Origin: a bacterium
GTDB lineage: Bacteria; Acidobacteriota; Thermoanaerobaculia; Multivoradales; J023
Assembly: GCA_024226315.1 (NCBI GenBank)
Contig: JAAELT010000577.1
Span: 12,032-76,031, forward strand
DNA: 64,000 nt
Reading direction: 5' to 3'
Shown here: piece after piece, positions 16,293-20,593 of the stretch
Numbering within the stretch: the first letter of the stretch is position 1
Layout: each line of letters starts with the position of its first letter
Position numbers and translations under genes: made by a program
Notes under the pieces: generated by a model
The model's database searches: none
What the model was told of the DNA's origin: nothing
The model's input: only the letters and a program-made list of their open reading frames with translations

Positions 16293-16392
16293 TTACTCGA
16301 CGACGAAGGTCTGGAGCTCGACCGGGGCCATCGAGTTGGGCACGCTGTCGAAGTAGACGTCCCCCCGCGTGTCGCCGCTGACCTGCCGAAAA
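16293..16392 (-). repeat. diverged partial copy (about 100 bp) of the 3' end of the BNR-repeat gene (original at 19058..19156). It encodes ...SGDTRGDVYFDSVPNSMAPVELQTFVVE*
   Basis: 16293-16392 aligns with 19058-19156 at about 85% identity, in frame and ending in the same stop. No gene body lies upstream of it; the region is intergenic. Confidence 0.7.
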
Positions 16393-16442
16393 CTGGAGGA
16401 TCTATTCGTGGCTTTGCCCCACTGTAACGTTAAGATCGTCCC

Positions 16443-17792
16443 ATGCGCAACATCCTCGTGCTCGGCGCCGGCCATAGCGCCACCTACCTGATCCGCCATC
16501 TGCTCGAGCAGGCCCAGGAGCGGGAGTGGTTCGTCACCGTCGGCGACCGCGACGGCGAGCTGGCGGCGCGGGCGGTGGACGGCCATCCATGTGGCGACGG
16601 CGTTGCCTTCGACGTCAACGACGCCGAGATGCGCGCGGCGCAGATAGAGGAGGCGGCGGTGGTGGTCAACCTGCTGCCGCAGCATTTCCAGAGCCTCCTG
16701 GCCTGGGATTGCCTGCAGCACGGGCGGCACCTGGTCTCGGTGTCCTACAAGGACCGGCGCATGGACGAGCTGGAGCGCGACGCCCGGCGCAAGGGCGTGC
16801 TGATGCTCACCGAGATCGGGCTCGATCCGGGCATCGACCTGATGTCGGCGATGGCGGTGATCGGCCGGGTGCAGGAGGCGGGCGGCGTGGTGAGGAGCCT
16901 CGAGTCGTACGGCTCGGGCGTGCCCGCCCCGGAGGTGGACGCCAATCCGCTCCGCTACGCCATCACCTGGAACCCGCGCAACGTCGCCATGGCCGGTGAG
17001 CAGGGCGCCCAGTACCTCGAGCATGGCGAGATCAAGATCGTCCCCTGGCACCAGATCTTCCATCACACCTGGCGCAAGGAAGTCGCCGGATTCGGCCCGA
17101 TGGAGGCCTACCCGAACCGCGATTCCCTCTCCTACCGCGACAAGTTCGGCATCTCCGACGCCGAGACCCTGATCCGCGGCACCCTTCGTTACCCCGGCTG
17201 GAGCGAGACCTGGCACCAGATCGTGCGCCTGGGGCTGCCGAACGAGAACATCGCGATCCCGAACCTCGAGCGGCGCTGCTTCCGCGACATCGTCGAGATG
17301 TTCCTGCCGCGCAGTGTCTCGGGCTCGGGCGTCGAAGGCCGCTTTGCCAACTACCTGGGGATCAGCGAGACCGGCCGCATCATGGACAACCTGCGCTGGC
17401 TCGGCCTGTTCTCCGCGGAAGTCCTCGGAATCGAGGGCTCGACCGCCACCGACGCCCTGATCTTCCTGCTCGAGCGCAAGCTCGCCCTGCCCGCGGACGG
17501 CCGTGATGCCATCATCCTGCTGCACGAGGTGATCGCCCGCTATCCCGGCGAGAACGGCCGCGAGGAGCGCATCACCTCGACCCTCGTCCACTACGGCGAG
17601 CCCGGCGGCACGACGGCGATGGCCAGAACGGTGGGGCTGCCGGCGGCGGTCGCCATCGAGCTGCTGCTCGCCGGCGAGCTGCCGCTGACCGGCTGTCACA
17701 TCCCCACCCATCCGGCCATCTACCGGCCCATCCTCGACCGGCTCGAGGCCGCGGGCCTGAGCTTCGACGAAACGGTCGAGCCCGGCGGCTGA
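16443..17792 (+). CDS. saccharopine dehydrogenase (NADP-binding Sacchrp_dh family)
   Basis: N-terminal Rossmann fold MRNILVLGAGHSATYLIRHL. Family blocks LLPQHFQ...VSVSY, GLDPGIDLM and ITWNPRN are present. Confidence 0.8.
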   Translation: MRNILVLGAGHSATYLIRHLLEQAQEREWFVTVGDRDGELAARAVDGHPCGDGVAFDVNDAEMRAAQIEEAAVVVNLLPQHFQSLLAWDCLQHGRHLVSVSYKDRRMDELERDARRKGVLMLTEIGLDPGIDLMSAMAVIGRVQEAGGVVRSLESYGSGVPAPEVDANPLRYAITWNPRNVAMAGEQGAQYLEHGEIKIVPWHQIFHHTWRKEVAGFGPMEAYPNRDSLSYRDKFGISDAETLIRGTLRYPGWSETWHQIVRLGLPNENIAIPNLERRCFRDIVEMFLPRSVSGSGVEGRFANYLGISETGRIMDNLRWLGLFSAEVLGIEGSTATDALIFLLERKLALPADGRDAIILLHEVIARYPGENGREERITSTLVHYGEPGGTTAMARTVGLPAAVAIELLLAGELPLTGCHIPTHPAIYRPILDRLEAAGLSFDETVEPGG

Positions 17793-18952: not shown

Positions 18953-19057
18953 GCACATTTGGCCACCTTGATCCGCGCTGCGCGCCAGTCCCGCCCTGGG
19001 TTCGACGCCGTTAATCCGTTTGCGTCAAGGATCTCCGCGACCGGCGCCGGGCTCGTT

Positions 19058-20593
19058 TCATTCGACGACGAAGGTCTGGAGCTCGACCGGGACCATCGAA
19101 TTGGCCAGGCTGTCGAAGTACACGTCCCCCTTCGTATCGCCGCTGACGGCGGAAGTGAAGGCGAAATATGCGTCGGTGGCGTCGACCACGAGGCCGAGGT
19201 ACTCGCCCAGCCAGGGCTCGCTGCCGGGCAGGTTGGTGGGGGTCGCGAAGCTCTGGTCCGTGACCCGGACATTGGTCGAGAAGGTCGTGCCGCCGTCGGT
19301 GCTCTTGGCCACGTAGACGTCCCACATGTCGTCATTGGCGGCGTTGCGCTTGTCGTACCAGGCGACGTCGATCGTGCCGTCGGACTTGACCACGATCATC
19401 GGATGGATCTGATCGCGGGTCGTGGCGTCGTCGTTGACCGTGAGCGGGGTCGACCACGTGGCTGTGCTGCCGCTCATGGTGGACCTGGTGAAGAAGATGT
19501 CGGCCTCGTCGGCGGCGCCCATGGGATCGGCGGCGTAGACCATGTAGACGGTCGTCGAGCTCGACGGGTTGGTGGCGATGGCCGGATAGCTGCCCGAGCG
19601 CGCGTCGTCCATCGCGCCGCCGAGCGTCGACATGTGGTTCGAGAGCGCGGTGATGTTCTGCGCCACCTGGTCGGTGGTGAAGCTGACCCCGCCGTCGGTC
19701 GACCGGTCGAGGTGCAGCGTGCCGGGCTTGGGGTTCATGTCGGTGACGTCGACGTCGATCCAGGAGACGTAGATCGTGCCGTTGGCGGCCACCGCCACGT
19801 CCGGGACGTTGGCGAAGTCGGACGGCGGTGCCGGCAGCGGCATCCCGCCGGGATTGTCGTTGATCGTCTTCGGGGCGATGCTGCCTGCCGGCACGCCGGT
19901 GAAGTCGAGCCCCGTGGGGTTCATGGGTCCCGGCACGACGGGCGGCGGCGACTTGGCGAAGTAGATGTCACTGGTCGGCAGCCCCTGGCCGACGTCCTTG
20001 ATCCACACCACGTAGACGTGGTCGCTGCCGTCGACGGTCATGTCGGGCCGGTCGTTGAAACGATAGGGATCGGGCATCGGTGGCGGTGGCAGCATCCCGG
20101 CGCGTACGTCGAAGTCGATAGTGTCCGGCCCCGACCAGGTTGCCCCCTTGTCCGTCGACCTCTCGATGTAGATGCCGCCAGGGCCGCCGCCCGAGCCGTC
20201 GGTGGCGATGTAGCCGGCGTAGATGTTGCCCAGGGAGTCGGAGTCGATGAACGGATCGAAGATGAAGCTCAGGGAGATGCCGTCGTCCGGTGACGGCGGC
20301 ATGAGGATCGGATGGGTCGGAACGCCCAGTTGCCGATCGAGCCACGTGGCGCCGGCGTCGAGGCTGAAGCTGACCCCGAGCGGGCTTGAGGCGGCGCCTG
20401 CGTTGTCGTTGTAGGCGACCACGAAGTTGTTGGCGTCGGTGGCGTTCTGCGTGATCCGGATCTCGTTCTGGACCGTGCCGGCGGCGTCGGAGTTGATTTT
20501 GACGTCCACTCCTGCGAGGGCCAGGACCGGCCAGGCCACAACCGCGGCCGTGGCGGCCACGGTCCTGAGTGTCGGCGAGCGCAGATCGATCAT
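19058..20593 (-). CDS. secreted BNR/Asp-box repeat protein (sialidase-like beta-propeller)
   Basis: A GGAGGA RBS precedes ATG MIDLRS (an upstream GTG at 20647 is less likely). Signal peptide present. Asp-box motifs: STDKGATW, STDGGVSF, STDGGTTF, SLDAGATW. Confidence 0.75.
   Translation of the reverse strand: MIDLRSPTLRTVAATAAVVAWPVLALAGVDVKINSDAAGTVQNEIRITQNATDANNFVVAYNDNAGAASSPLGVSFSLDAGATWLDRQLGVPTHPILMPPSPDDGISLSFIFDPFIDSDSLGNIYAGYIATDGSGGGPGGIYIERSTDKGATWSGPDTIDFDVRAGMLPPPPMPDPYRFNDRPDMTVDGSDHVYVVWIKDVGQGLPTSDIYFAKSPPPVVPGPMNPTGLDFTGVPAGSIAPKTINDNPGGMPLPAPPSDFANVPDVAVAANGTIYVSWIDVDVTDMNPKPGTLHLDRSTDGGVSFTTDQVAQNITALSNHMSTLGGAMDDARSGSYPAIATNPSSSTTVYMVYAADPMGAADEADIFFTRSTMSGSTATWSTPLTVNDDATTRDQIHPMIVVKSDGTIDVAWYDKRNAANDDMWDVYVAKSTDGGTTFSTNVRVTDQSFATPTNLPGSEPWLGEYLGLVVDATDAYFAFTSAVSGDTKGDVYFDSLANSMVPVELQTFVVE

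Follow-up and report, generated by a model that had tools for sequence, protein, structure and literature searches.

We asked how a detached copy of a gene's 3' end came to lie on the far side of two enzyme genes in a bacterium of the Acidobacteriota. The window analysed is the whole stretch of 64,000 nucleotides at positions 12,032 to 76,031 of contig JAAELT010000577.1 (assembly GCA_024226315.1); its GC content is ~67% and its gene calls were based on third-position GC. It contains an intact gene for a BNR/sialidase-like protein, here called BNR-b, and, beyond a gene pair encoding a saccharopine dehydrogenase-type protein (Sacchrp_dh) and an AlaDH/PNT-fold protein, an orphan fragment, here called BNR-a, that repeats the end of the BNR gene. 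An earlier note on this DNA had taken the enzyme pair to be the cargo of a mechanism common to three loci. Our preferred answer, which we hold with modest confidence, is instead that a second, diverged BNR copy was lost by a deletion at a 5-bp microhomology and left the orphan tail as its 3' stump, in a population recombining with a lineage ~12-15% diverged. The main features of the locus were as follows.

15252-16109, plus strand: thioredoxin-family gene (Trx), convergent on the orphan tail; P0241 is 100% identical and relatives are named thioredoxin family
16293-16385, minus strand: BNR-a, orphan 3' fragment of a BNR/sialidase-like gene, 30 sense codons and a TAA stop
16443-17792, plus strand: Sacchrp_dh gene of the glutamate-forming type (Lys9 / AASS SDH-domain type), matching Pfam Sacchrp_dh_C (2e-64) and Sacchrp_dh_NADP
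17813-18952, plus strand: AlaDH/PNT-fold dehydrogenase gene, matching Pfam AlaDh_PNT_N and AlaDh_PNT_C
18953-19057, no strand: 105-nt spacer between the convergent stops of the AlaDH/PNT gene and BNR-b, nearly identical in metagenome contig L001
19058-20593, minus strand: BNR-b, intact BNR/sialidase-like secreted beta-propeller gene with a signal peptide and Asp-box motifs

The gene-tail copy described in the earlier note was real. Alignment gave a 93-nt direct repeat (16290-16382 versus 19055-19147) with 89% identity and a spacing of 2765 nt, in frame and with no indel, although it measured 31 codons and not the 33 codons plus stop that had been claimed. A blastn comparison of the near-identical tail on contig L001 with 16290-16382 gave 89.2% identity (E=1.7e-27). 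The partner at 19055-19147 is the last 93 nt of BNR-b with 3 nt past the stop included, and homology between the orphan and the BNR-b tail runs to 4 nt past the stop. Translated from the minus strand, the orphan reads QVSGDTRGDVYFDSVPNSMAPVELQTFVVE followed by a TAA stop and the BNR-b tail reads AVSGDTKGDVYFDSLANSMVPVELQTFVVE followed by a TGA stop. The orphan has neither a start codon nor a ribosome-binding site and, as had been stated, lies free in intergenic DNA; Pfam also confirmed that the genes between the repeats are Sacchrp_dh and AlaDH/PNT-fold genes in the opposite orientation to the BNR gene. The protein P0001, which carries the NCBI name exo-alpha-sialidase, is 100% identical to the BNR-b protein. 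The 10 differences between the tail copies are spread over all base types, the longest identical run is 30 nt (the end of one codon and most of the C-terminal tag described below), and a family tail alignment placed both variants inside the natural variation of the BNR family. A six-frame search found the tail peptide at two sites only in the window, and the first 20 codons of the orphan are BNR-specific, which within the window excludes the alternative that the copy is a generic repeat.

The origin of the tail was addressed by comparison with a variant haplotype. The closest protein to the window Sacchrp_dh was P0121 (96% identical), encoded on contig L004 (JAANTA013077185.1; 1915 nt; metagenome GCA_024449835.1). 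L004 was 98.1% identical to window positions 16378-18254 and 100% identical from ~16743 onward, while its first 300 nt of Sacchrp_dh were only 85-87% identical to the window. Homology between L004 and the window begins exactly at the inner edge of the orphan tail, at two features.

16378-16382, minus strand: breakpoint pentanucleotide GTCAG (CTGAC on the plus strand), from a three-way junction comparison
16383-16442, plus strand: Sacchrp_dh upstream region (promoter/5' untranslated region), near-identical in L004 with one mismatch and one indel

Upstream of the homology L004 reads GTCAG-GAGGAAGGAAG-ATGATCGATCCGCGCTCGCCGACCCTC, that is, a ribosome-binding site and the codons for MIDPRSPTL, the start of a BNR gene. 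Written in BNR orientation, the window junction is ...TTTTCGGCAG GTCAG CGGCGACACG..., leading into the tail, whereas the L004 junction is ...TTTTCGGCAG GTCAG GAGGAAGGAAG ATG ATC GAT CCG CGC TCG CCG ACC CTC. BNR-b itself has ...CACTTCCGCC GTCAG CGGCGATACG... 93 nt before its stop, and begins with AGGAGGACGAAC ATG..., encoding MIDLRSPTL. GTCAG is therefore common to the window junction, to the 5' untranslated region and ribosome-binding site of the L004 BNR gene and to the BNR-b tail (19143-19147). The 41-nt BNR head on L004 was 88% identical to the BNR head in L001, and homology between the BNR-a and BNR-b heads starts at AGGAGG. L004 was the sole alternative haplotype recovered, and in place of an empty site its junction shows the 5' end of a BNR gene. 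Because L004 joins the Sacchrp_dh upstream region to a BNR start exactly where the window has the tail, and because GTCAG stands at both ends of the missing segment, deletion of the BNR-a body is the simplest reading of the junction and insertion of a cassette is not. A direct repeat of this length at the two deletion end-points is within the 3-10 bp of microhomology typical of joints formed by homology-facilitated illegitimate recombination (HFIR) and other illegitimate events (PMC3240628; Amarir-Bouhram et al. 2011).

Under the deletion explanation the ancestral order would have been the thioredoxin gene on the plus strand, BNR-a on the minus strand, the operon on the plus strand and BNR-b on the minus strand, with BNR-a divergently upstream of the Sacchrp_dh / AlaDH-PNT operon. 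The BNR copy that begins on L004 would be full length, and BNR-a and BNR-b would be ~88% identical, with homology limited to the stretch between the ribosome-binding site and the fourth nucleotide after the stop. This confinement of the homology argues for alleles or orthologues from two lineages and not for a recent segmental duplication. The two-copy state would have come about through general recombination with a sister lineage at roughly 12-15% divergence, possibly by single-crossover (Campbell-type) integration of a circularised fragment carrying the BNR gene and the operon, possibly by exchange between genomes of differing gene order. The body of the redundant BNR-a would then have been removed by illegitimate recombination between two GTCAG sequences, one in its 5' untranslated region and ribosome-binding site and the other 93 nt before its stop, leaving the operon promoter region fused to the last 31 BNR-a codons. 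No dedicated recombinase would have been involved at any step.

Signs of such a mixed population were seen in the two near-identical contigs. L001 differed from window positions 18175-20900 by about 6 mismatches, and from positions 21975-22375 by 62 mismatches in 400 nt, within a ~15% diverged patch at 21975-22500. L004 has a comparable patch, 13-15% diverged, over the first ~300 nt of Sacchrp_dh (16443-16743). The divergence of these imported-looking patches (13-15%) is broadly like that of the tail copies (9-14%). Sharp patches of a few hundred nt in otherwise near-identical contigs indicate frequent homologous import from a sister lineage, as read from the alignments. L001 also independently supports the AlaDH/PNT-to-BNR-b side of the locus.

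The composition and conservation of the enzyme pair were then set against its proposed role as cargo. The Sacchrp_dh protein aligned over its full length (E ~1e-58) with the SDH domain of human AASS (PDB 5L78), with Magnaporthe saccharopine reductase (1E5Q) and with yeast Lys9 (2AXQ), so that the first enzyme is clearly predicted to be a glutamate-forming saccharopine dehydrogenase/reductase. For the AlaDH/PNT protein the nearest solved structures were alanine dehydrogenases (E=2.5e-17) with no Lys1 match, and a 67%-identical Streptomyces plasmid homologue bears the PGAP name N5-(carboxyethyl)ornithine synthase (CEOS). This enzyme may be LKR-like or CEOS-like, and the LKR label is unproven. 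The lysine-to-saccharopine module proposed in the earlier note is thus plausible but only half demonstrated: the Sacchrp_dh half stood, while the LKR half did not, since the second enzyme is nearest to alanine dehydrogenases and has a CEOS-annotated homologue. The window genes scanned included no gene for an aminoadipate-semialdehyde dehydrogenase, NCBIfam gave no informative names for the enzymes or for the toxin-antitoxin (TA) proteins mentioned below, and exact-protein look-ups with the window Sacchrp_dh and Trx proteins gave no match. The pair resembles the bifunctional LKR/SDH (AASS) of animals and plants (PMC7253579) in that an SDH-type Sacchrp_dh stands beside a protein with the LKR-domain fold. 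In AASS the two halves are fused, whereas in the window they appear as separate genes, and the window AlaDH/PNT protein, unlike the AASS domain, shows no detectably greater similarity to Lys1/LKR than to alanine dehydrogenase.

The arrangement of Sacchrp_dh with a downstream gene was present in 4 of the 4 relatives examined (L005, L006, L013 and L014; Sacchrp_dh 79-82% identical). The downstream gene was an AlaDH/PNT gene in L006 (Pfam) and in L005 (tblastn) and was cut off in L013 and L014. The neighbours of the pair differed in each of the four relatives, and a BNR gene was never adjacent. In the window the pair had a GC content of 0.69-0.72 and a third-position GC (GC3) of 0.93-0.95, at the top of the window range. 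Scored against the codon usage of the remaining window, its synonymous codons had a log likelihood of -0.70 per codon, equal to that of rpoD and glutamate dehydrogenase, and its codon usage was the most native in the window; the TA and TPR inserts at two other loci scored -0.97 to -1.18 and an Rhs immunity gene scored -1.83. The proposal that the 16396-19057 block has a foreign composition was rejected, as its codon usage and GC3 are as native as those of rpoD. Searches of plasmid and phage collections gave no match save the one distant AlaDH/PNT homologue on the Streptomyces plasmid, and a plasmid or phage origin was rejected. No integrase, transposase or reverse transcriptase gene was found by Pfam in or near the unit, across all credible window genes and open reading frames (ORFs) in gaps; the sole trace was the rve_3 stump described below. 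The pair looks resident and its standing as cargo was not supported, because its codon usage is rpoD-like, the operon is kept in relatives, and there is neither a recombinase nor a junction motif in common with the other loci.

The layout itself recurs in the window. As the earlier note had recognised, the BNR locus is a third instance, and a gene, an insert and an orphan tail of that gene follow each other also at a SpoIID/SPOR locus and at an AcrB-like locus.

35029-35291, minus strand: orphan 3' fragment of the SpoIID/SPOR gene, 263 nt, 91% identical; parent gene at 36352-38595 (minus)
60088-60338, plus strand: orphan 3' fragment of the AcrB-like gene, 251 nt, 87% identical; parent gene at 54602-57703 (plus)
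62274-62354, plus strand: second, shorter AcrB-like orphan 3' fragment, 81 nt, after HicAB and PIN TA modules

A PIN/Phd-type TA pair lies between the SpoIID/SPOR gene and its orphan tail, and the longer AcrB-like orphan sits after a 705-aa TPR gene. In all tail pairs the homology stops 1-5 nt past the stop codon. The junctions of the four pairs had no motif in common at either edge and their lengths ranged from 81 to 263 nt, and no further BNR, SpoIID or AcrB remnants were found within the inserts. No indels were found in the tail pairs over 93, 261 and 249 nt, and their dN/dS lay at 0.31-0.37. With these values, and with both BNR variants falling within family variation, much of the tail divergence was probably acquired in functional genes. 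That deletion remnants are frequent in this DNA is shown by two other 3' stumps in the window, from an ECF sigma gene and an rve_3 transposase.

Several observations weigh against a deleted second copy. L004 shows only 41 nt of BNR-a (the ribosome-binding site and 9 codons) and then ends. The window and L004 differ also in the first 300 nt of Sacchrp_dh, and for this reason neither is a simple parent of the other. A BNR protein of 74-99% identity was absent from a set of 5.8 billion proteins, no full-length BNR-a is on record, and among the relatives retrieved there was neither a sister-species genome nor an empty site at any of the three loci. The nearest BNR homologue, P0002, was 73% identical with an unrelated gene downstream, and the genome collection yielded relatives of only 61-62% in Acidimicrobiia and Actinomycetes. 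Finally, each of the 6 gene fragments found in the window comes from a 3' end, and 4 of them stand downstream of an intact partner with an insert between. This bias is striking; random deletion does not obviously predict such a directional regularity, which fits better with anchored insertion in one step.

In that rival explanation, a fragment from a diverged relative, carrying the 3' part of the BNR gene and the operon, entered in a single event, either by HFIR or, once the fragment had closed into a circle on itself, by a single crossover. The arm of homology would lie in the BNR gene, the illegitimate join would fall at GTCAG 93 nt before the resident stop, and the resident tail would be displaced downstream, so that a full second BNR copy was never in this genome. 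Single-crossover integration of circularised DNA in E. coli gave gene-end duplications of 109-950 bp flanking the insert (PMC3240628), and these duplications, like the 3-10 bp microhomologies, match what is seen here. One-step insertion also accounts for the intact gene upstream with an orphan 3' tail in 4 of 4 cases and for homology that ends at the stop codon, and the 9-14% divergence of the tails matches that of the imported patches in L001 and L004. Against it, the operon looks native and not imported, and the donor needs GTCAG followed by a BNR ribosome-binding site and start beside the operon, as in L004. As the donor must be L004-like, a two-copy or circular arrangement of the BNR gene and operon is still required somewhere. 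We consider this origin unlikely for the BNR tail, though it is the strongest of the rivals.

A wider form of the same idea can be put forward tentatively, as something on the improbable side: in this high-GC lineage, of which few members have been sampled, the 3' ends of conserved genes would serve as homology anchors for recombinase-independent addition of genes from ~10-15% diverged relatives and, as a separate matter, the peptide PVELQSFxVE-COOH of the BNR protein would be an undescribed sorting signal. Incoming DNA may recombine inside a gene and its far end may join by microhomology just upstream of the resident stop. Repeated rounds may then build arrays of gene, insert, orphan tail, insert and orphan tail, as downstream of the AcrB-like gene.

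We also considered an in-situ duplication of the BNR gene, or of the BNR gene with the operon, followed by ~11% divergence and decay of one copy to a tail. Direct repeats in the same orientation flank the operon and L004 holds a second BNR head, as this would predict. Set against these points, the homology runs only from ribosome-binding site to stop with unrelated flanks, and a second copy of the operon is absent. The dN/dS of ~0.37, the lack of indels and the family-typical residues of the orphan also speak against it, and its divergence equals that of obviously imported patches. A duplication in place is quite unlikely.

The cassette interpretation fared worse. It supposes an integrase-less site-specific unit, like a cis-mobilisable element (CIME) or a satellite, mobilised in trans by a recombinase that recognises gene 3' ends; the unit would be 2.77 kb here, with TA units at the other two genes, and each element would bring its own substitute 3' end, in the manner of e14 and phage 21 at icd. 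The locus shares its architecture with icd, e14 and icdC (PMC13626634), a direct repeat of the target gene 3' end flanks the insert (93 nt, 89%), and there are three such loci in 64 kb. Mobile elements typically carry TA modules, and those seen here have an atypical codon usage. However, the window has no recombinase gene, the repeats of 81, 93, 251 and 263 nt have no common core or edge motif, the alternative haplotype has a BNR 5' end and no empty site, and the cargo is native-like and vertically conserved. The claim that the enzyme pair was cargo of a common mechanism was not supported, in view of the BNR start at the L004 junction and GTCAG at both breakpoints, and of the native codon usage, the conservation of the pair in relatives and the lack of an integrase or transposase and of a common junction motif. 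We regard a cassette as very unlikely.

Two further systems were tried and rejected. The mismatches between the repeats are not adenine-specific and Pfam found no reverse transcriptase, which rejects the template and variable repeats of a diversity-generating retroelement. An integron with attC sites was rejected as the hairpins at 16197-16272 are REP-like, recur at 6723-6831 with no tail copy nearby and are absent from the other three junctions, and no IntI was found.

The least probable explanation is an assembly artefact, with the window contig or L004 chimeric and the tail junction present in no cell: both sequences do come from metagenome assemblies and the ends of L001 and L004 lie within 80 nt of each other, but a de Bruijn mis-join needs at least ~20 nt shared where these junctions share only 5 nt, the L004 BNR head is 12% off the BNR-b head of the same metagenome (L001) and so was not built from BNR-b reads, and L001 independently confirms the AlaDH/PNT-to-BNR-b side, all of which makes an artefact extremely unlikely.

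One of the closest known systems is icd/icdC with e14 (and phage 21) in E. coli K-12, where an insert follows an intact gene and a diverged C-terminal fragment pseudogene stands at its far end (PMC13626634). As a prophage, e14 brings foreign genes and encodes a site-specific integrase, and a clean empty site is its alternative state. The window locus differs from it in having no recombinase, a native-looking operon and a BNR 5' end in the alternative haplotype. HFIR and single-crossover integration (PMC3240628) are alike in the duplicated gene-end segment, the 3-10 bp of microhomology and the absence of a dedicated recombinase, but the known cases are selected laboratory events with engineered substrates, whereas here the process is inferred from a natural genome. 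The tail does not differ in kind from gene remnants left by microhomology deletion, with a promoterless fragment, a short direct repeat at the joint and a haplotype that retains some of the sequence missing here, and we place it among them. Features of this kind are known both from the icdC-type C-terminal fragment pseudogene and from gene-end duplication by single crossover or HFIR. At rhs and cdiA loci, orphan C-terminal modules arise when incoming DNA recombines in the conserved body of the gene and the old 3' end is stranded downstream. What is displaced at those loci is a variable toxin tip together with its immunity gene, whereas here it is the conserved end of the same protein with unrelated genes between.

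The last codons of both BNR tails encode a C-terminal tag that was followed separately.

19058-19090, minus strand: coding sequence for the tag PVELQTFVVE with its stop, present also in the orphan at 16293-16325

Metagenome stretches were searched with a degenerate DNA pattern for P-V-E-L-Q-[ST]-F-x-[IVM]-E-stop, and the pattern was found in at least 120 stretches (loci L016-L135). Among the matches listed, 99 usable tagged ORFs fell into 49 groups that had no similarity once the tag was removed, and the stop codon was TAG in 75 of 123 despite a GC content of ~65%. The consensus on the tagged ORFs was [VIL]PVELQ[ST]Fx[VI]E-stop. Most of the group representatives inspected had a signal-peptide-like hydrophobic N-terminus. 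The tagged proteins include M14 and S8 peptidases, PQQ-type dehydrogenases, lactonase and Kelch propellers, LTD and DUF11 proteins, four choice-of-anchor J proteins and also choice-of-anchor Q proteins. Among BNR homologues, short forms carry tag variants, and in long forms GDVFFDS is followed by other C-terminal domains instead. The tag is covered by no model in Pfam or NCBIfam, and a literature search did not find the tag strings. The DNA downstream of the tag stop was not conserved, and no recurrent neighbour gene was seen in the 120 loci listed. We propose the tag as a candidate for a widespread, sorting-signal-like and apparently undescribed motif on unrelated secreted proteins. Its presence explains why the 30-nt run is the longest identical stretch between the two BNR tails. 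The earlier note had considered that the C-terminal motif might be a widespread sorting tag, and this holds for the last 10 codons only; the repeat extends a further 63 nt upstream of the tag into BNR-specific sequence, and for this reason the tag does not dissolve the tail-copy finding.

The flanks of the BNR locus held further features. The thioredoxin-family gene marks the conserved side of the locus: the order of Rhs, immunity and thioredoxin genes was kept in L009-L012 and the genes after the thioredoxin gene differed. Between this gene and the orphan tail lies the following feature.

16197-16272, no strand: two REP-like (repetitive extragenic palindrome-like) hairpin units with GGAGTTGTCRG cores, between the stops of the thioredoxin-like gene and the orphan tail

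Three more REP-like units were seen at 6723-6831, downstream of the gene at 5286-6362. An example reads GGAAGGAGTT-N13-AACTCCTTCC, and the core had 10 matches versus 2.8 expected by chance. Neither a scan for promoters and terminators nor folding of the intergenic sequence gave anything significant. On the other side, divergent from the BNR gene (20707-22310, plus strand), a 77-aa protein with no family match is encoded directly upstream of an AAA_21/AbiEii-like ATPase, possibly as a small defence or TA-like pair, and L010 and L011 have PNP_UDP_1-AAA_21 fusions at the corresponding variable spot.

The two remaining 3' stumps lie in low-GC DNA. The ECF sigma orphan 3' fragment (...SAATVKRRWRLAKGL..., ~11320-11414, minus strand), in low-GC intergenic DNA upstream of an Rhs gene, shares 75% identity over 20 aa with the C-terminus of the ECF sigma factor at 4616-5236. 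The C-terminal stump of a DDE transposase (~14990-15166, minus strand) matches positions 43-67 of the 67-position rve_3 profile (E=5e-5), the match covering 25 residues at ~15092-15166. It stands ~1.1 kb from the orphan BNR tail, in the 560 nt of low-GC DNA that separate the Rhs immunity gene from the thioredoxin-like gene. In the Rhs-repeat gene (11638-14690), the C-terminal part and the next gene, of 131 aa, have a GC content of 48-55% and look like a typical toxin-tip/immunity module.

The region downstream of the AcrB-like gene (57704-63730) contains TPR, HicA/HicB and PIN genes and an Xre-like/RES pair, with the two AcrB tail copies between. The PIN gene of this island likely has an AbrB/MazE-type antitoxin partner, a motif recognised by eye with no Pfam confirmation. 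After the island, at 63813-63974, there are inverted and direct repeats of 33-52 nt. The gene at 38608-39558 (minus strand) has a lower GC3 (0.77) and encodes an IstB/DnaC-like AAA+ ATPase whose N-terminus bears a CxxC zinc-finger-like motif, with no IstA-type transposase beside it.

The main value of these results is corrective. A cassette-like layout with what appears to be a duplicated attachment site can come from ordinary recombination and deletion, and one short variant contig (L004) sufficed to tell a mobile cassette from recombination followed by deletion. If gene 3' ends do act as anchors, ~4 events in 64 kb would make this a major directional route of gene gain, exploited by TA modules in particular. 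Were the density of stumps to hold genome-wide, this lineage would show in nature how genes are gained between diverged relatives through homology anchors and without a recombinase, a process so far mostly documented in laboratory transformation and conjugation experiments. The remaining novelty thus lies in a possibly frequent, directional and recombinase-free insertion at gene 3' ends and in the apparently undescribed tag. The tag, found as a by-product, may matter more: in sediment and soil metagenomes it ends dozens of secreted proteins that are unrelated to each other, and its candidacy as a new sorting or anchoring signal can be tested.

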